Shown piece after piece: positions 19,929-58,659 of a stretch of DNA of 64,000 nucleotides. A model generated the notes under the pieces. The model saw nothing but the letters and a program-made list of their open reading frames with translations. It was not told the origin of the DNA and searched no databases. Made by a program: the position numbers and the translations under genes. The stretch spans positions 2,123 to 66,122 of the forward strand of contig JAGMCI010000014.1 in NCBI GenBank assembly GCA_023129325.1, written 5' to 3'. Within the stretch, counting starts at the first letter, position 1, and every line of letters starts with the position of its first letter. This DNA is from a candidate division WOR-3 bacterium. Its GTDB lineage: Bacteria; Hydrothermota; UBA3073; JACQXS01; JAGMCI01.

Positions 19929-20083
19929 AACCACAGAGAGCACAGGAATAACAAAGAGAACACAGAGTAATTCAAATTCTTATATTAACAGGGATTTTAA
20001 GAGATTCATTTTTTATCTTTGTTTTCTTACCCAGCACATAATTTATGTGCTGGGTGGCTATTTTTCTCTGTGTCCTCCGTAGC
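19929..20083. repeat. CACAGAG-type inverted element enclosing a hairpin
   Basis: AACCACAGAGAGCACAGG..AACACAGAG (19929-19967) faces CTCTGTGTCCTCCGTAGC (20066-20083). An 11-bp-stem hairpin lies at 20030-20054. Confidence 0.6.
20030..20054 (+). terminator. Possible intrinsic terminator
   Basis: CCCAGCACATA ATT TATGTGCTGGG followed by TGGCTATTTTT. It lies downstream of the GT4 gene that ends at 19827. Confidence 0.45.
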
Positions 20084-20093
20084 TAATTATTTC

Positions 20094-20121
20094 TTGACAA
20101 ATCTTATAAATATGCTATTAT
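20094..20121 (+). promoter_or_regulatory. Sigma-70-like promoter immediately upstream of wzm
   Basis: TTGACA (20094-20099), a 16-nt spacer, then TATTAT (20116-20121). The ATG is at 20129 with no visible SD. Confidence 0.45.
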
Positions 20122-20128
20122 TAAATAA

Positions 20129-20902
20129 ATGATTGCCATATTTAAAGAAATTTATAAATACAGAGAATTGCTTTTAACCCTTGCTTTAAGAGATGTAAAA
20201 TCAAGATATAAACAGTCGGTACTTGGTATAACTTGGGCTTTATTTGTGCCTCTTATAGCTATGCTGGTGTTTACATTTGTTTTCTCAAAATTCGTTAAAG
20301 TTGATACCGGTGGAATACCTTATCCTATTTTTGCTTATTGTGGTATCCTCCCGTGGACATTCTTTGCGGCTTCACTTAATACTTCAATAAATTCACTTGT
20401 TGCAAATGGTGGACTTGTAACTAAAATTTACTTTCCAAGAGAAGTATTTCCACTTGCTTCTATTGCTGCAAGTTTTGTTGATTTCTGTATTGCAACTCTT
20501 GTATTATTAGGATTAATGCTCTTTTATCATATTCATTTCCATCTGACAATTCTTTTGGTAATACCTATATTATTGCTTCAAATTATGCTAACAGCTGGTT
20601 TAGGTTTTATATTTTCAATGGCAAACTTATTCTTTAGAGATATTAGATATTTATTTCAGGTAATTATTCCTTTATGGATGTTTGCTACTCCAGTAGTATA
20701 TCCAATACCAGAAAAATTTAGATGGCTTTATATCATAAATCCAATGGCACCTATTATTTCATCTTACAGGTCTTTAATTATTGAGGGAAGTTTACCTGAT
20801 ATGACTACATTTAGCATATCTATTTTAATTTCTTTAACAATATTTATTATAGGAGCATTATGGTTTCATCGCGCTGAATATCTATTTGCAGAAAATATAT
20901 AA
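20129..20902 (+). CDS. wzm: ABC-2 type polysaccharide exporter permease
   Basis: YRELLLTLALRDVKSRYKQSVLGITWAL N-terminal signature and six hydrophobic segments. Confidence 0.85.
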   Translation: MIAIFKEIYKYRELLLTLALRDVKSRYKQSVLGITWALFVPLIAMLVFTFVFSKFVKVDTGGIPYPIFAYCGILPWTFFAASLNTSINSLVANGGLVTKIYFPREVFPLASIAASFVDFCIATLVLLGLMLFYHIHFHLTILLVIPILLLQIMLTAGLGFIFSMANLFFRDIRYLFQVIIPLWMFATPVVYPIPEKFRWLYIINPMAPIISSYRSLIIEGSLPDMTTFSISILISLTIFIIGALWFHRAEYLFAENI

Positions 20903-20956
20903 AAGATAGGGTACAGGGGGTAGCGTATAGGGTGTAGAGAATGATGTGGAGGAACG

Positions 20957-21310
20957 ATGAAAAGTTATAAAGAATTGATAGCATATCAAAAAGGGTATCA
21001 ATTGTGTCTGAAAGTTTATAAGACAACAACAAATTACCCAAAGCAAGAGATTTATGGATTGGTATCGCAGATGCGAAGAGCGGCGGTATCCATACCCTCA
21101 AATATAGCTGAGGGATATAGGAGAAAAACACGAAAAGCATATACCCAATTTCTTAGAATTGCTTTGGGTTCATGTAGCGAATTAGAAACTCAGATTTCAT
21201 TATCTAAGGATTTGGGATTTATAGGGGCTAAGGATTACAGGGTACTATATGAGTTACAAGTTGAAGTTACCAAGTTATTAATTAAATTAATAGCTTCTTT
21301 AGAAAAATGA
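20957..21310 (+). CDS. Four-helix-bundle protein (23S rRNA intervening-sequence protein / Avd-like family)
   Basis: YQKGYQLCLKVYKTTTNYPKQEIYGLVSQMRRAAVSIPSNIAEGY...FLRIALGSCSELETQ is the family signature. Confidence 0.85.
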   Translation: MKSYKELIAYQKGYQLCLKVYKTTTNYPKQEIYGLVSQMRRAAVSIPSNIAEGYRRKTRKAYTQFLRIALGSCSELETQISLSKDLGFIGAKDYRVLYELQVEVTKLLIKLIASLEK

Positions 21311-21385
21311 CCCTACACCCGGAATTTATCCCGCACCAAGCGGAACCCTACACCCTGCACCCTTTACCCTATACCCTGATGTATT

Positions 21386-22633
21386 ATGGCAGTAATTGAA
21401 TTTAATCACATCTGGAAGAAATTCAAGAAAGGCGGAGGGGGTGCATCGCTCAGAGACCTCATAAGTAATATGATTTCCCGCCTACACCCGGAATTTATCC
21501 CGCATCAAGCGGGACCCTACACCCTACACCCTGATTCTATCTTCTGGGCATTAAAGGATGTATCATTTGAAGTAAATGAAGGCGAGGCGCTTGGTATAAT
21601 AGGACCAAATGGAGCTGGGAAGACAACAATCTTAAAACTTTTATCAGGCATAATGAGACCAACTAAAGGGAATATAAATATAAAAGGCAAATTATCAAGC
21701 TTAATTGAGTTAGGAGCTGGCTTTCATCCGGAGCTAACTGGAAGAGAAAACATATACTTAAATGGCCAAATTTTAGGGATGCACAGAGATGAAATAAAAC
21801 GCAAATTTGATTCAATAGTAGATTTTTCAGGCATAGAAGAATTCCTTGATATGCCAGTAAAGAGGTATTCCTCGGGAATGTATGTCCGTCTCGGCTTTGC
21901 CATAGCAATTCATGTAGATTTTGATGTCCTATTAGTAGACGAAGTCTTAGCCGTAGGCGACATCAATTTTCAAAAGAAATGCTTTACTAAAATGGGGGAA
22001 TTTCGGGAAAAAGGAATGACAATTGTACTAATCTCCCATTCTATGTCAAATATTTCAAGAACATGTAACCGAGCTATATTTTTAGACCGTGGAAAAGCTG
22101 AATTTAAAGGCGTTTCCGACAAAGCAATAGAGGCTTATTATAATAGTATAGATAAAAAGGCACAAGATATTATATCTACAAAGATATATAAAGTGGGAAC
22201 TGGAGAAGTTTCTATAAGTAATGTGAAAGTATTTCAAGAAAATAATAATATAAAAAGTAATGAAATTGAGTTTGGAAAAAATATTGTTATAGAAGCAAAT
22301 TATAAAATAAATAGTGAAAATATTCCTGACGATATTGAATTTAGGGTAGGAATATTAACTCTTGAAGGTTATGACTTTATGAAGTTAATTCATAGAGAAT
22401 ATAAACCCTCTCGAAATGGTCAGGTACAATTTATAATAAAATCTCCAAAATTATTTCCACGAACTTACAAAATAAATATAGCAGCCTGTCCTTTAGATAT
22501 GGATTATCATATGGGAGGCATTGGTAATGCAGCTACATTCACTATAAAAAAACCTGATAATAAAAAAATTAGTAAATTTGAATATGGGAATACATATTTA
22601 GTTTACTTTGACTATGAAAGTAAAGCTTTATGA
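21386..22633 (+). CDS. wzt: Polysaccharide ABC exporter ATPase with extra C-terminal domain
   Basis: Walker A GPNGAGKTT, signature YSSGMYVRLGF, Walker B VLLVDEVLAVGD, and about 150 further C-terminal residues. It carries the in-frame insertion LHPEFIPHQAGPYTLHP. Confidence 0.85.
   Translation: MAVIEFNHIWKKFKKGGGGASLRDLISNMISRLHPEFIPHQAGPYTLHPDSIFWALKDVSFEVNEGEALGIIGPNGAGKTTILKLLSGIMRPTKGNINIKGKLSSLIELGAGFHPELTGRENIYLNGQILGMHRDEIKRKFDSIVDFSGIEEFLDMPVKRYSSGMYVRLGFAIAIHVDFDVLLVDEVLAVGDINFQKKCFTKMGEFREKGMTIVLISHSMSNISRTCNRAIFLDRGKAEFKGVSDKAIEAYYNSIDKKAQDIISTKIYKVGTGEVSISNVKVFQENNNIKSNEIEFGKNIVIEANYKINSENIPDDIEFRVGILTLEGYDFMKLIHREYKPSRNGQVQFIIKSPKLFPRTYKINIAACPLDMDYHMGGIGNAATFTIKKPDNKKISKFEYGNTYLVYFDYESKAL
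21479..21535. repeat. Hairpin-plus-heptamer module in frame in wzt
   Basis: CTACACCCGGAATTTATCCCGCATCAAGCGGGACCCTACACCCTACACCCT. Related copies are at 21310-21379 (intergenic) and 34028-34080 (in a CDS). Confidence 0.8.
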
Positions 22634-28808: not shown

Positions 28809-30308
28809 ATGTATAAATTATTTTTTATGTTATGTTTCTTGCTTCCCATTTCTCACTTTTCACTTCTCACTTCTTCTTTCGCCGCCACCTGGGAAAAGAC
28901 TTTTGGAGGGACAGGTCAGGATGAGGGATGGTCTGTTGAGCAAACCACAGATGGTGGATTTATTATAGCTGGAATGACATCCTCATTTGGAGCAGGTGAA
29001 AGCGATGTATATTTGATAAAATTAGACAGTCTTGGTAATGAGGTATGGATGAAGACTTTTGGTGGAGACAGTGCAGATGAGGGACGATGTGTTAAACAAA
29101 CTCAAGATAGCGGATTTATCATAACCGGATATACAAAATCATACGGAGCAGGTGATAAGGATATATGGCTTATAAAAACAAAGAGTTCTGGTGATACCAG
29201 TTGGACAAAAACTTTTGGAAGTAATAAACCAGATGAGGGATGGTCTGTTGAGCAAACGACAGATGGTGGATTTATTGTAGCTGGAGCAACGCATTCATGG
29301 GGAGCAAAAGAGAGTGATGTGGTTCTGATAAAAACAAATAGTCTCGGTAACGATGTTTGGGGGGAAATTTTTGGGGGAGCCGATGATGATGAAGGACGCT
29401 GCGTTAGGCAAACGGCAGATAGTGGATTTATTGTAGTTGGGTATACAAAATCTTATGGGAGTGGGGATAAAAATGTATGGCTCATAAAAACAAAGAGTTC
29501 TGGCGATACCAGTTGGACAAGAATTTTTGGAGGAGGAAACCCGGATGAAGGAATGTCTGTTGAGCAAACGACAGACGGTGGATTTATTGTAGCTGGATAT
29601 ACAGAGTCGTATGGAGCAAGTGACAGGAATATATGGCTTATAAAAACAGATAATTCTGGCAATCCTGATTGGGATGAAACCCTTGGAGGAGAAGCCCCGG
29701 ATGAAGGAATGTCTGTTGAGCAAATCGCAGATGGTGGATTTATTGTAGCTGGAGCAACGCATTCATGGGGAGCAAAAGAGAGTGATGTGGTTCTGATAAA
29801 AACAAATAGTCTCGGTAACGATGTTTGGGGGGAAATTTTTGGGGGAGTTGATGATGATGAAGGACGCTGCGTTAGGCAAACGGCAGACGGTGGATTTATT
29901 ATAGTTGGGTATACAAAATCCTGTGGAGCAGGTTCCTCTGGTGTATATGTTATAAAAACAGATTCCCTTGGCAATGTTGGGGTTGAAGAAGCAATTTCTC
30001 AGTTACCAACTTATTATAGTTTATCCCAGAACTCACCAAATCCATTTAACAAAACTACAGTGATAAGCTTTCAGTGCCCAGTGACCAGTGGAAAAGAAAG
30101 AACCACCTTGAAGATTTATAACTTGAGTGGAAGACTGATTAAGACCTTATTCGATAAGACACTAACCACTAACCACTTGCCACTGACTACTACTGTCTCC
30201 TGGGATGGCAGAAATGAATCTGGCAAATTAGTAGCTAATGGAGTTTATTTTTATAAGCTAAATAGCACAAATTTCGCATCCACGAGAAAACTCATCGTCT
30301 TAAAATAG
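28809..30308 (+). CDS. Secreted seven-repeat (beta-propeller-type) protein with T9SS C-terminal sorting domain
   Basis: Start moved to the ATG at 28809, after AAGGGGGG. Signal peptide ends SSFA. Seven repeats of about 48 aa follow the pattern W.KTFGG...DEG.SV.QT.DGGFI..G.T.S.GAG..D..LIKT. The tail is PNPFNKTT...GVYFYKL...KLIVLK. Confidence 0.8.
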   Translation: MYKLFFMLCFLLPISHFSLLTSSFAATWEKTFGGTGQDEGWSVEQTTDGGFIIAGMTSSFGAGESDVYLIKLDSLGNEVWMKTFGGDSADEGRCVKQTQDSGFIITGYTKSYGAGDKDIWLIKTKSSGDTSWTKTFGSNKPDEGWSVEQTTDGGFIVAGATHSWGAKESDVVLIKTNSLGNDVWGEIFGGADDDEGRCVRQTADSGFIVVGYTKSYGSGDKNVWLIKTKSSGDTSWTRIFGGGNPDEGMSVEQTTDGGFIVAGYTESYGASDRNIWLIKTDNSGNPDWDETLGGEAPDEGMSVEQIADGGFIVAGATHSWGAKESDVVLIKTNSLGNDVWGEIFGGVDDDEGRCVRQTADGGFIIVGYTKSCGAGSSGVYVIKTDSLGNVGVEEAISQLPTYYSLSQNSPNPFNKTTVISFQCPVTSGKERTTLKIYNLSGRLIKTLFDKTLTTNHLPLTTTVSWDGRNESGKLVANGVYFYKLNSTNFASTRKLIVLK

Positions 30309-30534: not shown

Positions 30535-33500
30535 ATGAGAAAATCATTTTTTATCTTCCTTTTCACTGCTTACTGCTTACTACTTACTACTTACTCTTCT
30601 TTCGCCGATACCTGGACCCAAACTGACTGGAGTGGAGAAAGTGGACAATTATTCTATGAAGATACAACAAAGTATTGGCAAGGAAGCGGAATCGACGGAA
30701 TAGTAGATAGAGGGGTTTTGACTCTATATAAAGAAGGTATTTGGGATACAATATTTACAGTTCCAAATCAGACAAAGGTATATACTATTATTAATGGTCC
30801 CGACAGTATTCTTTTTTTGGGTTCGGGAGACAACACCTTAAAGAGCATCTACAGGTCTATAGACAATGGGAAAACATGGGCTCCTTTTATCTCTAATATG
30901 CTAAATATTGTGCCTACTCTTTTGATTGCTTTCTCTAATCTGTATATAGGAGGACGTTATTCAACAAATACTATTGCTCAGATTATCCGATTTCCTGATT
31001 TATCAAGCAGTTACGACTACTACCTTACAGTTCACGATATGTATACTTTCTATTCATTATGTAAATCATCCTCATATCTATTTGGAGCAGGTGGAGCACC
31101 AGAGGGAAGAATATATCGTTCAACAGATGAAGGAGTATCTTGGAATTGGTGTTTTACTTGCTTAGATGATAAAATATTTTCTTTACTTGCAACTAATGAT
31201 GGCACTGTATATGCAGGTACAGGAGATACCTATGGAAGAATATATAAATCTATAAATTATGGTAGTAATTGGACTGAAACAGGTGAGTTGCCAGGTGCAA
31301 AGTCTGTCTATAGTCTTACCCAAGGAGCTGATAGTGCAATATATGCTGGAACTGATACTGCTGGGATAGTGTATAAAACTACGGGTGAAGGAAACACCTG
31401 GATTTCTACTGGAAAACTTCAAGGAGCTACAAAAGTTTATTCTCTAATATGCGGGCCCAACGGTTATCTCTATGCAGGATGCAAATGTGAAGATGATAGT
31501 GCGCGTATATTTGCTTCTATTGATAATGGTGATAATTGGACAAATATAGGAATACTCCCTGGGGCTACTTCTGTTACCTGTCTTTTATTTACAAATAATA
31601 GCTCTTTACTTGCCGGAACAGATTATAATGGCGTCATATTTAAAGCTCCAAAATTTGATACATCTGGATATCTTGTATCTTCTATTTATAATATAGGAAC
31701 AGCTAATGGAAGTGTTGAATATGGGACTATATTATGGGATGCAACTGCTGATACACAAGATATTATTGTTAAAGTGAGAACATTTCAGGATACTGTGAGC
31801 TGGAGCGATACCACTGCCTGGGATAGCGATAGCTGTGTTCCAGTCGCAAATGGACAAGATATATCTGAAATACCTTCTGTAGATGATGGTGACCAATTTG
31901 TTCAGTATAGAGTTGAGCTTTCAACTCAAAGTCCGTTTGTAACTCCAATATTTGATGAAATATCAATAAATTATTCTTTAGATACTATTGCACCTGTGAT
32001 TGTCACGGCTGTCGCTTATGGTAACGAGGAATTAATTCCACCAGATTCAATAATCTCTCAAGACAGAGTAATAATTTCGTTTAGTGAGCAGGTAGATACA
32101 AGTCATGCACATATTAATGTATCCAATATTGACTCTATCTTGAGGTTAAGTAATAATCATTCCTGGCTTGATAATTCTGGAACTTTTCAATCTATTGTAT
32201 GGGAAGACTCAACTACTTTAAAAATTACTCTTGGTGAAGATATATGGTCTGGTATGGTTGCTTCAGGAGATACTATAACTCCTTTGCCTGATAGTATTAA
32301 AGATAAATGGGGAAATCCAGCTACATCTTATTGTGTTATTACTGGTTCTTTTGCTCCAAATATTGATTCTATAATTGTTTCTGATGGCTCTGATTCAATT
32401 GAATATATTGATAACGATGATTATGTTAGTTTTTATTTTTCAAAGCGCACAAATAAACCAAAAATTGATAAAAATAATATAAATTCCGTTCTTCAAATCC
32501 CTGAACATACCTGGCTTGATGGATTGGCTGAACTTAGAGGAGATTCCGCTATTTGGGATACATTTGGATTTACACTTACTTGTTCTTTAAAAATAGATAG
32601 TTTAAGACCTACAATTCAGATTGGTGACACGGTATTTCCTGATGGAATTACAATATGGGATAAATTTTTGAGAGACTCGGTTGCAAATCCAGCTATAATT
32701 GGAGGTACTTTTGGAGATTATGGACCTGTTCCGGAATCTGCCATCGCTTATGAATTTGGTCCCCCTGAATCAGGAATTGGAGATGGTGATATAGTATGGA
32801 TTTTCTTTAATGAACTTATAGATACTAATATAAATTGGGATTCTGTAGACCTTGATACTATATTAACCCCACAAAAAAATGGTATCCAGCACACCTGGCA
32901 TCCTGATAGTTTATCATATGATGTTCAGCCCATAGATATGCAAGACCCACAAGGAATACCATATACTGTGCTTTATATATCTTTTTTCTATCCAGGAGTA
33001 GAAGAGTTTTTTCCCTCAATTACTTCTTATAAACTATTTCAAAACTTTCCAAACCCATTTTCTAAAGGCACACTTATTAAATATCAAATATCAGATATCA
33101 GATATCAGATATCAGAGGTCAGAGGTCCCGATATGAAATCGGGATCCTCATTTTTGTATTCAAATCAAAGACTTGAACAAAAATGGGATAAGAAGACAGA
33201 AGTAAGACCTAAATACCAATTACCAATTACCAATTACCAGATTCTCCCCATTGCTATTGGAGATACGCTTTATCCGGATTCAAGCACAATTCAGGATTTT
33301 AAGGGACATAAATGTATAAAGCCAGTTGTTCTTCAGGGCGCATTCAAAAAACAGGGTAAAGGGCAAAGGGTGAAGGGTAAAGTCAAAACTCTTAACCCCG
33401 TCTGCCAAAGCGAAGCGGCGGGCAGGTCACAACCCACAGCTACTCCGGTTTCCTTAAGAATTTATGACATTGCAGGGCGCTTGGTTCGAACACTAATAAA

Positions 33501-33642
33501 TGAGTCTAAAGTAGCTGGCAGTTACGAAATTTACTGGGACGGAAAAGATTCAGAAGGCAGAAAAGTAAAGAGTGGTATTTACTTTTATAAACTAACTGTA
33601 GGAGAACATACTTTCATAAGAAAAGCAATTTGTATAAGATAA
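30535..33642 (+). CDS. Large secreted BNR/Asp-box repeat protein with an interrupted T9SS C-terminal sorting domain
   Basis: Signal peptide ends SSFA. Asp-box-like motifs are SIDNGKTW, STDEGVSW, SINYGSNW, TGEGNTW and SIDNGDNW. The tail FQNFPNPFSKGTLIKYQI ... PVSLRIYDIAGRLV...GIYFYKL is split by about 360 nt. Confidence 0.8.
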   Translation: MRKSFFIFLFTAYCLLLTTYSSFADTWTQTDWSGESGQLFYEDTTKYWQGSGIDGIVDRGVLTLYKEGIWDTIFTVPNQTKVYTIINGPDSILFLGSGDNTLKSIYRSIDNGKTWAPFISNMLNIVPTLLIAFSNLYIGGRYSTNTIAQIIRFPDLSSSYDYYLTVHDMYTFYSLCKSSSYLFGAGGAPEGRIYRSTDEGVSWNWCFTCLDDKIFSLLATNDGTVYAGTGDTYGRIYKSINYGSNWTETGELPGAKSVYSLTQGADSAIYAGTDTAGIVYKTTGEGNTWISTGKLQGATKVYSLICGPNGYLYAGCKCEDDSARIFASIDNGDNWTNIGILPGATSVTCLLFTNNSSLLAGTDYNGVIFKAPKFDTSGYLVSSIYNIGTANGSVEYGTILWDATADTQDIIVKVRTFQDTVSWSDTTAWDSDSCVPVANGQDISEIPSVDDGDQFVQYRVELSTQSPFVTPIFDEISINYSLDTIAPVIVTAVAYGNEELIPPDSIISQDRVIISFSEQVDTSHAHINVSNIDSILRLSNNHSWLDNSGTFQSIVWEDSTTLKITLGEDIWSGMVASGDTITPLPDSIKDKWGNPATSYCVITGSFAPNIDSIIVSDGSDSIEYIDNDDYVSFYFSKRTNKPKIDKNNINSVLQIPEHTWLDGLAELRGDSAIWDTFGFTLTCSLKIDSLRPTIQIGDTVFPDGITIWDKFLRDSVANPAIIGGTFGDYGPVPESAIAYEFGPPESGIGDGDIVWIFFNELIDTNINWDSVDLDTILTPQKNGIQHTWHPDSLSYDVQPIDMQDPQGIPYTVLYISFFYPGVEEFFPSITSYKLFQNFPNPFSKGTLIKYQISDIRYQISEVRGPDMKSGSSFLYSNQRLEQKWDKKTEVRPKYQLPITNYQILPIAIGDTLYPDSSTIQDFKGHKCIKPVVLQGAFKKQGKGQRVKGKVKTLNPVCQSEAAGRSQPTATPVSLRIYDIAGRLVRTLINESKVAGSYEIYWDGKDSEGRKVKSGIYFYKLTVGEHTFIRKAICIR
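33081..33243. repeat. Composite module in frame: heptamer arrays, hairpin, heptamer array
   Basis: ATATCAA then (ATATCAG)x4 and (AGGTCAG)x2 at 33081-33127. Hairpin TCCCGAT ATGAA ATCGGGA at 33126-33144. (TACCAAT)x3 at 33214-33234. Confidence 0.85.
33352..33426. repeat. Composite module in frame: GGGYRAA heptamers plus GC-rich hairpin
   Basis: GGGTAAA GGGCAAA GGGTGAA GGGTAAA, followed by CCCCGTCTGCCAAAGCGAAGCGGCGGGCAGG. Confidence 0.8.
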
Positions 33643-33833: not shown

Positions 33834-34211
33834 ATGTGGGTTAATATTCGTGATTCAAGGATTGTTAAGAAGATAGAAGATGGATTCAAGAAAAGGAAGG
33901 AACTGTATAAAAAACTAAAAGTAAAAGCTCTGGATATAAAATACTCTACAACTCCTATTAAAAACAAAAAATTACTTTATAACTTATATCTTCTTAAAAA
34001 AAGACTATATCAGATAGATATGGTTTTCCCCTTTACCCTGCGCCCGGAATTTATCCCGCACCAGGCGGGACCCTGCACCTTTTTTTTAAACAAGCTTTGT
34101 AGAAAAATTGGAAAATTCTTATTAAAAGATTACATTGACAAACAAAAGAATTTTAACGAAGCAGTAATTGAGGCAATTGAAGAATTGACAAGAGAAATAA
34201 ATGAGGGTTGA
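33834..34211 (+). CDS. Hypothetical protein carrying an in-frame hairpin module
   Basis: ORF track. It overlaps the next GT4 gene by 11 nt. The peptide TLRPEFIPHQAGPCTFF is encoded by the module at 34028-34080. Confidence 0.45.
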   Translation: MWVNIRDSRIVKKIEDGFKKRKELYKKLKVKALDIKYSTTPIKNKKLLYNLYLLKKRLYQIDMVFPFTLRPEFIPHQAGPCTFFLNKLCRKIGKFLLKDYIDKQKNFNEAVIEAIEELTREINEG

Positions 34212-56667: not shown

Positions 56668-57461
56668 AAATTAAAATATGCATAACAGTAGATATGGAAC
56701 AAGATATCCCTCCAATTATGCAAACATATAAAGGAATAGAAATTGGTATTCCCTATCTTTTAAATATCTTCAAGACTTATAAAGTAAAAGCAACATTCTT
56801 TGCAACAGGTAATATCGCAGATAAATATCCAAAAATAATTTCTGAAATAATAAATAGAGGTCACGAGATTGGCTGTCATGGAATGTGGCATGAAGATTTA
56901 AGCGCATCGAATTACCAAGATAAGTCAAACAGAATTAGTGAAGCGACTCGGATAATAGAAGATATTGTGGGAGAAAAAATTGTGAGCTTCAGAGCTCCTT
57001 ATCATTTGATAAATGCTGAATTGCTTTCTGTTTTGGAGTCACACGGTTATCTTATAGAAGCATCTAAATTTCAGAAGTCAGAAGTCAGAAGTCAGAAGTC
57101 AGATATGCCTTACTATCCAAATAATATGAAGATATTGAGAGTGCCATTATCTCTTCCTCCCGCTTCTTACTTCCCGCTTCTTACTTCCCGCTTCTTACTT
57201 TCTTTATACAATATGTCCTGGATTCTTGGATATAAATATGCAGTTTTCAAACAAAGAAGAGAAAAAATAAAAGTTATAATTCTTGGCTCTCATTCATGGG
57301 AATTCGTGGACATTCCTGAATCTCCTGAGAATTATAGGAAAATATATGGTAAACACTCACGGGATAAATTAAATGAATTATTTAAATATTTGAATCCGTC
57401 AGCTGACGGAAAGAATGTAGAATTTATAACTATAAAAGAACTGCTTAAATATGATTTCTAA
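56664..57461 (+). CDS. Polysaccharide deacetylase-family protein with three in-frame repeat insertions
   Basis: KATFFATGNIADKYP...GHEIGCHGMWHE and SFRAPY motifs. Confidence 0.8.
   Translation: MKIKICITVDMEQDIPPIMQTYKGIEIGIPYLLNIFKTYKVKATFFATGNIADKYPKIISEIINRGHEIGCHGMWHEDLSASNYQDKSNRISEATRIIEDIVGEKIVSFRAPYHLINAELLSVLESHGYLIEASKFQKSEVRSQKSDMPYYPNNMKILRVPLSLPPASYFPLLTSRFLLSLYNMSWILGYKYAVFKQRREKIKVIILGSHSWEFVDIPESPENYRKIYGKHSRDKLNELFKYLNPSADGKNVEFITIKELLKYDF
57071..57105. repeat. Perfect heptamer tandem array in frame
   Basis: (TCAGAAG)x4 at 57071-57098 followed by TCAGATA, encoding QKSEVRSQKSD. Confidence 0.9.
57151..57202. repeat. 14-nt tandem array in frame, roughly inverse to the TCAGAAG array
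   Basis: (CCCGCTTCTTACTT)x3 at 57159-57200, encoding PASYFPLLTSRFLL. Confidence 0.9.
57395..57410. repeat. Perfect 16-nt palindrome in frame
   Basis: TCCGTCAGCTGACGGA, encoding PSADG. Relatives are at 33791-33806 and 59554-59569. Confidence 0.8.
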
Positions 57462-58659
57462 AATACCAGTTGCCGAACCAGTAATAGGTGAAAAAGAGTT
57501 TAAATATGTAAATGATGCTTTAAAATCCTGCTGGGTATCCTATGGTAAATATATTGATGAGTTTGAAGCAAAATTCGCTTCATATTGCGGAGCAAAGCAT
57601 GGAATTGCTGTAACTAATGGCACAGTAGCTTTACACCTCGCATTGGTAAGTCTTAATATAGGGGAGAAAGATGAAGTTATACTTCCCACTCTTACATTTG
57701 CCTCTACTTGTGAAGCTGTTCTATATACACATGCAAAACCTGTATTTTGCGACTCAGAAAAGGATACCTGGTGTATTGACCCCACTAAAATTGAGAAAAA
57801 AATTAATCCAAATACAAAAGTTATAATTCCTGTGCATCTTTATGGTCATCCAGCTAATATGAAACCGATACTTGAAATTGCAAAAAAATATAATTTGTAT
57901 GTAATTGAAGATGCCTGTGAAGCTCATGGGGCAGAAATACAGATGTCAGAAGTTAGAAGTCAGAAGCAAGGGAATAAAAAGTCTTGGAAGAAAGTAGGAA
58001 GTTTTGGAGACATAGGAGTCTTTAGTTTTTATGGGAACAAAATCATCACTACAGGTCAAGGCGGAATGCTCATAACTGATAACAAAAAAATAGCTGATAG
58101 AGCAAGACTTTTGTATCAACATGCAATGGACCCACAGAAAAGATATTGGCATCTTGAACTTGGATACAATTATCAATTTACAAATCTTCAAGCCGCATTA
58201 GGAGTTGCACAGCTTGAGCAAATAGACTATTTTATAAAAAGAAAAAGGGAAATTGCAGAACTTTATACTTCACTTTTTAAAGATATCCCAGGTATAACAA
58301 CTCCAAAAGAAAAACACTGGGCAAAATCTGTTTTCTGGATTTATTCAATACTCATAGAACCAGAATTTGGAATCACAAGAGACAAATTGGCAATTAAATT
58401 AAAGGAACATGGAATAGAAACCAGACCAGTATTTTATCCATTACATCAAATGCCCCCTTACCTGCCTCGCCGTCTCCGTCCCGCTTCGCTTGTCGGAGCG
58501 GGGCAGGCAGGCAAGACTGGTGAACATTTTCCAGTGGCTGAAGAAATATCAAAAAAGGGATTAAGTTTGCCATCAAGTGTAAAGTTAAAAAAGAGTGATA
58601 TTAAAAAAGTAGTAAATGCAATTATAACAAGGGTTCAAGGAATCAAGAAGTCAAGCTAA
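57451..58659 (+). CDS. DegT/DnrJ/EryC1/StrS-family sugar aminotransferase with two in-frame repeat insertions
   Basis: FSFYGNKIITTGQGGMLITDN contains the PLP lysine. The layout is typical of the family. Confidence 0.85.
   Translation: MISKIPVAEPVIGEKEFKYVNDALKSCWVSYGKYIDEFEAKFASYCGAKHGIAVTNGTVALHLALVSLNIGEKDEVILPTLTFASTCEAVLYTHAKPVFCDSEKDTWCIDPTKIEKKINPNTKVIIPVHLYGHPANMKPILEIAKKYNLYVIEDACEAHGAEIQMSEVRSQKQGNKKSWKKVGSFGDIGVFSFYGNKIITTGQGGMLITDNKKIADRARLLYQHAMDPQKRYWHLELGYNYQFTNLQAALGVAQLEQIDYFIKRKREIAELYTSLFKDIPGITTPKEKHWAKSVFWIYSILIEPEFGITRDKLAIKLKEHGIETRPVFYPLHQMPPYLPRRLRPASLVGAGQAGKTGEHFPVAEEISKKGLSLPSSVKLKKSDIKKVVNAIITRVQGIKKSS
57946..57972. repeat. Heptamer array in frame
   Basis: TCAGAAG TTAGAAG TCAGAAG CAAGGG, encoding SEVRSQKQG. 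Confidence 0.8.
58457..58514. repeat. Long GC-rich imperfect hairpin in frame
   Basis: CTTACCTGCCTCGCCGTCTCCGTCCCGCTTCGCTTGTCGGAGCGGGGCAGGCAGGCAAG, encoding LPRRLRPASLVGAGQAGK. Confidence 0.8.

Follow-up and report, generated by a model that had tools for sequence, protein, structure and literature searches.

In the 64,000-nt window analysed here (the whole stretch taken from contig JAGMCI010000014.1 of a candidate division WOR-3 bacterium), the polysaccharide export genes wzm and wzt are separated by a small four-helix-bundle (4HB) gene, which is bracketed by inverted arrays of 7-nt units. The same arrangement, with units of 7 or 8 nt, was found around most of the homologous 4HB genes examined from many phyla, and comparison with relatives of the wzm-wzt locus shows that the gene and its arms are an insertion. 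The cassette is probably a selfish or accessory element of the intervening sequence (IVS) type, related to those known from 23S rRNA, living in an mRNA operon, with arms that would make the insert processable.

The identity and anatomy of the cassette are established with high confidence (Table 1). A preliminary description of this DNA had placed the 4HB gene between wzm and wzt with inverted arrays on both sides, and the sequence bears this out, positions included. The left arm begins 3 nt past the wzm stop codon (TAA at 20900-20902, followed by AAG), and the whole cassette spans about 472 nt (20906-21377/9). The right arm is in two parts, with an inner segment that pairs with 20929-20939 when the arms are folded, and an outer array that stops 6 nt 5' of the present wzt ATG (21386). 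Between the two lies a segment of 21-24 nt containing the hairpin CCCGC-ACCAA-GCGG at about 21330-21343. The hexamer ATGTAT at 21378-21383 abuts the outer right arm and is likely the ancestral start of wzt. As wzm and wzt are not separated by any terminator-like site, and wzm has a promoter-like site on its 5' side, the two genes and the cassette would be expected to form one transcript.

The protein encoded by the 4HB gene matched PF05635 with 127.4 bits (cut-off 33.8, E=3e-37, residues 5-109) and TIGR02436 with 120.6 bits (cut-off 24, E=3e-35). It carries the conserved RxxxSxxxNxxE core of the family as R41-S45-N49-E52, within QMRRAAVSIPSNIAEG, and the identical protein is labelled at NCBI as 'four helix bundle protein [candidate division WOR-3 bacterium]'. 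By sequence comparison, it matched the crystal structure of XCC0516 (2gsc) at E=1.2e-21 and a second structure, 2rld, at E=3e-5. Both depositions contain five chains, and these relatives, like bAvd, are described as pentamers. When compared with an 81%-identical 4HB copy in a sister sample (locus L082), the gene gave a dN/dS of 0.037, which indicates strong purifying selection; the protein is clearly maintained and therefore does something. It is present as a single copy in the window, as no further 4HB gene was found within the 64 kb.

The accessory protein Avd (bAvd) of diversity-generating retroelements has the same fold and belongs to the same superfamily, reflected in weak matches to PF22296 and NF033474. 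An assignment to Avd was considered and rejected, with scores of 26.7 bits against a cut-off of 80 for NF033474 and 28.4 against 40 for PF22296. The immediate neighbours of the 4HB gene are wzm and wzt, rather than a reverse transcriptase with template and variable repeats. We know of no description of Avd genes bracketed by inverted short-repeat arrays.

The 4HB gene and its flanks had been described as a self-contained cassette, and this view held. A scan of species-representative genomes, a collection that does not contain the genome of the window, returned 80 loci with 86 homologous 4HB genes (42-64% identity) from Elusimicrobiota, Desulfobacterota, Planctomycetota, Bacteroidota, Verrucomicrobiota, Nitrospirota, Candidate Phyla Radiation (CPR) bacteria and others. 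For each gene, the 150-nt upstream flank was aligned to the downstream flank of equal length after reverse complementation. The resulting inverted-flank score had a median of 31 for the 86 4HB genes and of 16 for 395 control open reading frames (ORFs) from the same loci, which were of at least 150 aa and not size-matched small genes. A score of at least 24 was reached by 76% of the 4HB genes, compared with 3.3% of these controls (Mann-Whitney p=4e-37). The window cassette, with a score of 31, sits at the family median and at the 99th percentile of the controls. In direct orientation the flank scores remained at the control level (9% vs 3.8%) and were never high without an inverted signal. Starting from the arrays instead of the genes gave a similar picture. 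In 1.1 Mb there were 95 strong inverted pairs spaced 250-900 nt apart, of which 66 enclosed a 4HB gene detected by hidden Markov model (HMM) and one more a divergent 4HB gene. Arms were also present beside four of six distant 4HB genes (28-45% identity) that were met by chance in the wzm loci described below.

A strict periodicity screen (at least 70% self-match over 35 nt) missed most of the degenerate arrays and was replaced by a within-arm lag analysis. The best internal period was 7 or 8 nt in 112 of 118 arms (lag 7 in 43 and lag 8 in 69), with a median arm length of 30 nt and units such as AAGGCAC, TAGGGGA, AGTTGACG, GGATTCAA and AGTTTTTA. The array length was highly variable, up to about 20 units in one locus (L058). 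The 5' arm was G-rich in 60 and the 3' arm C-rich in 61 of 65 cassettes. The arms adjoin the neighbouring genes, the left one starting at a median of 2.5 nt past the upstream stop codon, and 55 of 77 cassettes were co-oriented with both neighbours. No cassette was located inside rRNA among 13 loci, mostly CPR, in which only two tRNAs were found.

Judged from these comparisons, the inverted-array architecture is a property of the 4HB family. The alternative, that two like arrays happen to flank a small gene in a repeat-rich genome, is hardly credible. It could draw on the period-7 arrays, of which the window has dozens, including some within genes, and on the finding, discussed below, that shuffling the order of units does not lower the complementarity of the window arms. 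However, the window score is exceptional among the controls, the arrangement is orientation-specific and shared by three quarters of the homologues across many phyla, and the related 4HB genes in L082 and L083 have the same unit beside them. Coincidence was effectively refuted by the family-wide inverted flanks together with the inverted-pair search and the direct-orientation comparison.

A metagenome scan with Wzm gave 80 homologous loci. In about 24 relatives whose Wzt alignment starts at the N-terminus, the wzm stop and the wzt start were 2-11 nt apart, in agreement with the earlier statement that the two genes are normally adjacent and that the 4HB gene was inserted between them. The locus with the closest Wzm (L084, 63% identity) contains no 4HB gene and has the junction TAA-AAACAA-ATGTAT, whereas the junction in the window reads TAA-AAG-(cassette)-ATGTAT, with the present wzt ATG located 8 nt beyond ATGTAT. 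Because the ATGTAT at the right arm of the window matches the wzt start of L084, the cassette fills a spacer of about 6 nt. The exact ends of the cassette are not defined by this empty site, as L084 is too diverged. On this comparison, the 4HB cassette is an insertion between wzm and wzt.

The same junction is occupied by a different 4HB cassette in L135 (L135:2180-2645), where Wzm is 40% and the 4HB protein 27-28% identical to that of the window. Its left arm, GTGTCAG GTTTCAG GTGTCAC GCGTCAG (type GTNTCAG), starts at the wzm stop, and its right arm, CCTGACA CCTGAGA CTTGATA CCTGAGA CTTGATA CCTGAAA (type CTGANAC), ends 3 nt before the wzt ATG. This is an independent insertion event and, with it, a separate entry of a self-contained cassette. 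The nearest 4HB relative (81-82% identity), in L082, lies directly 3' of a wzm-like gene, with GGGTGTA-type heptamers upstream of the 4HB gene and GGAGGA also present. As the Wzm beside the L082 copy is only about 43% identical, while the junction of L084 at 63% is empty, the distribution of the cassette is incongruent with Wzm.

Specific targeting of the wzm-wzt junction became a less likely idea in the course of the analysis. In a clade with about 40% Wzm identity, spacers of 50-190 nt contain repetitive extragenic palindrome (REP)-like palindromes and hairpins or solo C-rich heptamer arrays (Table 1), and since they collect assorted repeats, the junction looks permissive rather than specifically targeted. 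No direct target-site duplication could be made out at either end of the window cassette, nor at about 50 boundaries of homologous cassettes.

The gene and its arms appear to be inherited and spread as one unit. Protein identity was correlated with the sharing of 6-mers between arms (Spearman 0.40, against at most 0.116 in 500 permutations), and the AAGGCAC unit is common to cassettes of Opitutales, Nitrospirae, Syntrophaceae, Emticicia and Planctomycetota. Within a single locus, the units could differ from one cassette to another (L042, L038). The 4HB protein of L083, which is 68% identical to that of the window and found in another context with higher GC content, is flanked by GGGTGTA / TACACCC arms like those of the window. 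Derivatives were also detected, in the form of ORF-less hairpins built from the same units as a full cassette in the same locus, and one internally deleted remnant (Table 1). The occurrence of 4HB cassettes alongside ORF-less hairpins mirrors the way in which autonomous and miniature elements are related, and likewise ORF-bearing and ORF-less rRNA IVSs.

The idea that the flanks could pair and loop out the ORF held in silico, both for the fold of the whole region and for the arms alone. In the minimum free energy fold of 20895-21390 the left array was paired with the right array (z=-3.55). The arms joined by a GAAA loop reached -44.7 kcal/mol compared with -30.1 +/- 3.4 kcal/mol in shuffles (z=-4.3), and none of 200 shuffles folded as well as the window arms. 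No Rfam match was found in 20700-21700. In 8 related cassette pairs, compensatory double changes numbered 7, changes to wobble pairs 5 and single disruptive changes 19, beside 186 unchanged pairs, with about 1 compensatory change expected by chance in the same pairs. This is suggestive of arm pairing being maintained by compensatory change, in what is a small sample with a slippery alignment of arrays.

What rRNA intervening sequences with an ORF are for has been an open question since the early 1990s. In Coxiella, the IVS has a length of 428 nt, is located in helix 45 of the 23S rRNA and carries a 4HB/S23p ORF; the inverted repeats at its ends make up a 28-bp stem which is cut mid-stem by RNase III in vitro, with the ends mapped by rapid amplification of cDNA ends, and 3-4 tandem heptamers (GACAGAT), variable in number between strains, precede the ATG (PMC4990558). 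The analogy with rRNA IVSs drawn in the preliminary description is therefore a close one, as the 4HB ORF, the stem-forming inverted repeats and the tandem heptamers before the ATG are all shared. The ORFs of the 23S IVSs of Coxiella and Leptospira belong to the same PF05635 family and are enclosed by stem-forming terminal inverted repeats, as in the window. Their heptamers are located between the 5' stem and the ATG, where the window has five heptamers at 20906-20939. The 23S elements are about 430-480 nt in size and regarded as selfish or horizontally moved, and older ideas quoted for IVSs are that they are remnants of transposition or mobile elements, with the ORF aiding mobility (PMC4990558).

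There are also differences. The 23S IVSs sit in helix 25 or 45 of the rRNA, whereas the window cassette is in the wzm-wzt operon. Both window arms are arrays of repeat units, unlike in the Coxiella IVS, and the Coxiella ORF is decaying and probably untranslated, while the window protein is intact, with a strong Shine-Dalgarno (SD) sequence and purifying selection.

If the IVS-type reading is correct, the cassette would have entered the spacer of about 6 nt between translationally coupled wzm and wzt and would be transcribed within the wzm-wzt operon. In the transcript, the 5' arm, rich in G, could then zip together with the C-rich 3' arm into an imperfect stem of about 30 bp, which would bring the wzm stop beside the wzt start and leave the ORF, with its own SD sequence, in the loop. 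As with the copies in rRNA, the stem could be processed by RNase III. The most likely function of the arms, by this analogy, would be to turn the insert into a self-delimiting, processable module that could be tolerated in essential transcripts such as rRNA and coupled operons. Our confidence in RNase III processing of the cassette in wzm-wzt mRNA is moderate, with the rRNA elements as the model, and a possible reading of the tandem units by a ring of 4HB subunits is an attractive idea.

Several points weigh against the IVS-type reading. Shuffling the order of units in the right arm of the window scarcely lowered the complementarity (31 vs 28.3, p=0.27), and register-specific complementarity was weak across cassettes, with a median z of about 1. 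Because unit-order shuffling has so little effect, the pairing potential of the window lies in inverted arrays of one unit family rather than in a unit-by-unit mirror image, and arms that are arrays of one unit could zip in many registers. The window stem is imperfect, with 23/28 paired in the best segment, and is broken by the hairpin module. The arm mismatches comprised 55 that are G:U-compatible and 60 A:C on the sense strand. As there is no excess of G:U, there is no RNA-specific signature, and complementarity at the DNA level would look alike. A cut separating wzm from wzt in the mRNA could be detrimental to expression rather than protective, and RNase III cleavage of an mRNA-embedded cassette was not found in published work. 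The purifying selection on the protein is left unexplained by a purely 'RNA module' view, and the lack of size matching in the control ORFs also counts here.

The cassette could instead be an element at the DNA level, in which the arrays act either as binding sites near the ends or as the terminal inverted repeats of a transposable cassette that is not autonomous, and the RNA stem is incidental. Such a cassette would resemble MITEs (miniature transposable elements bounded by inverted repeats), with the gene as a passenger, or REPIN/RAYT systems, with the 4HB protein acting in trans. We regard this as unlikely, and keep it as a rival because the arm mismatches have no G:U bias (55 vs 60) and target-site duplications are not visible. 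It would fit well with the ORF-less inverted arrays of the same unit and the decayed copy in the same loci, with the distribution that does not follow Wzm and the independent insertions at one junction, and with a unit type that moves with the gene across phyla and differs among the cassettes of one genome. The arms are also present regardless of the orientation of the neighbours, and 70-75 convergent pairs of GGGAATC arrays are found in Xanthomonas (PMC4692102). However, the absence of target-site duplications at about 50 cassette boundaries is equally a point against such an element, no transposase or recombinase is located in or beside the cassette, and the arm ends are not sharply conserved. 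To our knowledge, the 4HB fold has no catalytic activity either. The only experimental data on members of the family concern RNA processing (PMC4990558). The DNA-level and the IVS-type readings are not mutually exclusive.

The resemblance to REPIN-RAYT systems and MITEs lies in a gene placed between inverted copies of short repeats which are also dispersed as ORF-less intergenic hairpins (found in L038, L049 and L056), and in the location within operon spacers. Of the terminal inverted repeats and target-site duplications expected of MITEs and insertion sequences, inverted arms are present, and no direct duplication was recognisable. In contrast, REPIN-RAYT systems have a single palindromic REP and a HUH/Y1 transposase, whereas 4HB cassettes have tandem arrays of 7-8 nt and the window protein is a four-helix bundle that matched only PF05635 and bAvd. 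Also unlike these systems, there are many 4HB cassettes per genome, each with its own gene, and no target-site duplications were seen.

Another explanation is that of a host regulatory module, domesticated and not selfish, in which the pentameric 4HB protein would bind the units in the leader and trailer of its own mRNA in a TRAP-like manner, and would autoregulate or tune the flanking genes. The low dN/dS of 0.037 and the correlation of protein similarity with the unit type of the arms are in line with this, as are the five chains of 2gsc and 2rld set beside the roughly 4-5 units per arm (five per side here) and the position of the G-rich 5' arm beside the SD sequence and ATG. Nevertheless, we consider it improbable. 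Binding of the protein to the units is purely proposed, the distribution is patchy and incongruent and extends over many unrelated operons (wzm-wzt here; cmr3-cmr2, PMC3936711), the array length varies widely, as in L058, and ORF-less copies are scattered intergenically.

Members of the family have been reported in other contexts, with PF05635 genes located within cas operons, as in the case of one flanked by cmr3 and cmr2 (PMC3936711), and in rRNA insertions of CPR bacteria (PMC11270868). The crystallised prototype, XCC0516 of Xanthomonas campestris, has a four-unit GGGAATC array over its start, and lies 6 nt from bccP (XCC0517) (PMC4692102 supplement). The GGGAATC arrays of Xanthomonas and the cyanobacterial and Beggiatoa arrays (STRR-like, TAACTGA) resemble the arms described here, being tandem G-rich heptamers, often in convergent inverted pairs, and intergenic in operons (PMC4692102). 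They differ in how they have been interpreted, as the papers on these arrays treat them as G-quadruplex or regulatory repeats without a link to 4HB genes or IVS-type cassettes; this includes the 70-75 convergent pairs in Xanthomonas, described as G-quadruplex repeats (PMC4692102). A prior description of non-rRNA 4HB genes bracketed by inverted arrays of 7-8-mers was not found in a search that mostly covered literature outside subscription journals, which is absence of evidence only. The widespread cassette architecture outside rRNA therefore appears to be undescribed so far.

A much broader proposal, which we put forward as a tentative and rather doubtful one, is that 4HB cassettes make up a hitherto unrecognised and very large class of selfish, autonomous elements, in which a ring-forming protein would recognise its own arm units as RNA or single-stranded DNA and promote their upkeep or spread. 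Inverted arrays without an ORF, among them ORF-less rRNA IVSs and the GGGAATC pairs of Xanthomonas, would be non-autonomous derivatives of such elements, as perhaps would some of the unexplained heptamer repeats of genomes like that of the window, with cassettes carrying GxxExxY genes as a parallel branch.

PF05635 comprises 21,312 clusters at 50% identity and is thus among the large bacterial families of small proteins that still lack a characterisation. On these results, the rRNA IVS is only a special case of a general cassette, a gene with inverted arrays of 7-8-mers, that occurs in the ordinary operons of various phyla, leaves hairpins without an ORF as traces and can enter one junction twice. 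The old IVS question could thereby be made testable through RNase III cutting at the arms, binding of the protein to its own units and the mode of movement. If true, this would also provide an origin for many unexplained intergenic arrays of heptamers or octamers, including the Xanthomonas 'G-quadruplex' repeat pairs, and would explain small genes that interrupt cas, acc, leu or wzm-wzt operons, with gains for annotation.

GxxExxY genes (TIGR04256/PF13366) were likewise observed in cassettes with flanking arrays, one of which separates leuD from leuB (L038:7226-7695; L172:~970-1450; L164-L170). Their arrays consist of CGCGGATT-type 8-mers and, among four distinct loci, were inverted in two and direct on both sides in two. 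A scan of viral contigs for GxxExxY gave no match. Short units in inverted arrays also surround a small ORF of PilZ-like appearance in L002:9112-9634 (recognised by eye, with no NCBIfam match) and an ORF resembling a clan-AA aspartic protease in L085:5273-6087 and L086:4315-5137 (weak TIGR02281 match), and there may be other cargo genes in inverted-array cassettes. Most of the metagenomic contigs with close 4HB homologues in the protein match list were only about 0.5-2 kb long, as would be expected if the repeat-rich arms break short-read metagenome assemblies.

Table 1. Coordinates of the features of the wzm-wzt locus, of repeats elsewhere in the window, and of ORF-less or decayed derivatives in other loci (positions without a locus name are those of the window).
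Position	Strand	Feature	Remarks
20027-20057		Terminator-like hairpin	Ends the preceding unit
20094-20121	+	Promoter-like site, TTGACA-16-TATTAT with TG	Directly 5' of wzm
20129-20902	+	wzm, ABC-2 type polysaccharide export permease	257 aa; PF01061, E=2e-15
20906-20939	+	Left arm	Five degenerate G-rich heptamers, ATAGGGT ACAGGGG GTAGCGT ATAGGGT GTAGAG
20948-20953	+	GGAGGA (Shine-Dalgarno sequence, 4HB gene)	In the loop between left arm and ATG
20957-21310	+	4HB protein gene	117 aa; PF05635 / TIGR02436
21311-21320	+	Inner right-arm segment, CCCTACACCC	Immediately 3' of the 4HB TGA stop
21321-21344	+	Hairpin-bearing segment splitting the right arm	Stem CCCGC/GCGG, loop ACCAA
21345-21379	+	Outer right arm	ACCCTAC ACCCTGC ACCCTTT ACCCTAT ACCCTGA
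21386-22633	+	wzt, ABC transporter ATPase	415 aa; ABC_tran and Wzt_C domains
21311-21379		Module copy	In the right arm
21479-21535	+	Module copy (second ACCCTAC and hairpin copy)	In frame inside wzt
34030-34080		Module copy	In ORF 33834-34211
57071-57103, 57158-57200, 57940-57966, 33081-33440		Examples of heptamer/14-mer arrays	
L038:1869-1933, L038:6681-6736, L049:2916-3012, L056:8610-8687		ORF-less hairpins	Same units as a full cassette in the locus
L008:7048-7245		Internally deleted remnant	Only the C-terminal end of the 4HB ORF left between the arms
L118, L125, L115, L158, L130, L143		ORF-less wzm-wzt spacers	REP-like palindromes or solo arrays

The ends of the cassette had been noted to be of the same repeat type as repeats inside neighbouring genes, and this was borne out, as the unit of the right arm and the hairpin module recur in frame in wzt. 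The sequence ACCCTNNACCCT occurs 7 times in the window compared with 0.14 expected. It was found that ACCCTAC-type heptamers around a CCCGCAYCARGCGGG hairpin make up a module of about 45-54 nt, of which the window contains three copies (Table 1). The copies in wzt and in ORF 33834-34211 are both in frame and translated as ..PEFIPHQAGP.., and the one in wzt adds about 18 residues (RLHPEFIPHQAGPYTLHP) that the Wzt of L084 lacks. These copies recall palindromic elements that invade coding sequences without a frameshift. The arrays in the ACCCTAC modules dispersed over the window are direct rather than inverted, and are accompanied by a small hairpin.

Many tandem arrays of heptamers, and of 14-mers, with different units are present in frame within the genes of the polysaccharide cluster, often beside a short unique hairpin, and the large ORF 30535-33642 carries in-frame arrays as well. 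The suggestion that the cassette might be a clue to the spread of these other repeats was not supported, because the arrays use many different units, for which a single 4HB cassette with one unit type in 64 kb cannot account. The in-frame heptamer arrays of the window are a genome-wide repeat phenomenon that merits a separate study. In addition, a tandem repeat with a period of 156/312 nt, in 5-6 copies of about 70% identity, is located at 28895-29930 and presumably represents a repeated protein domain.

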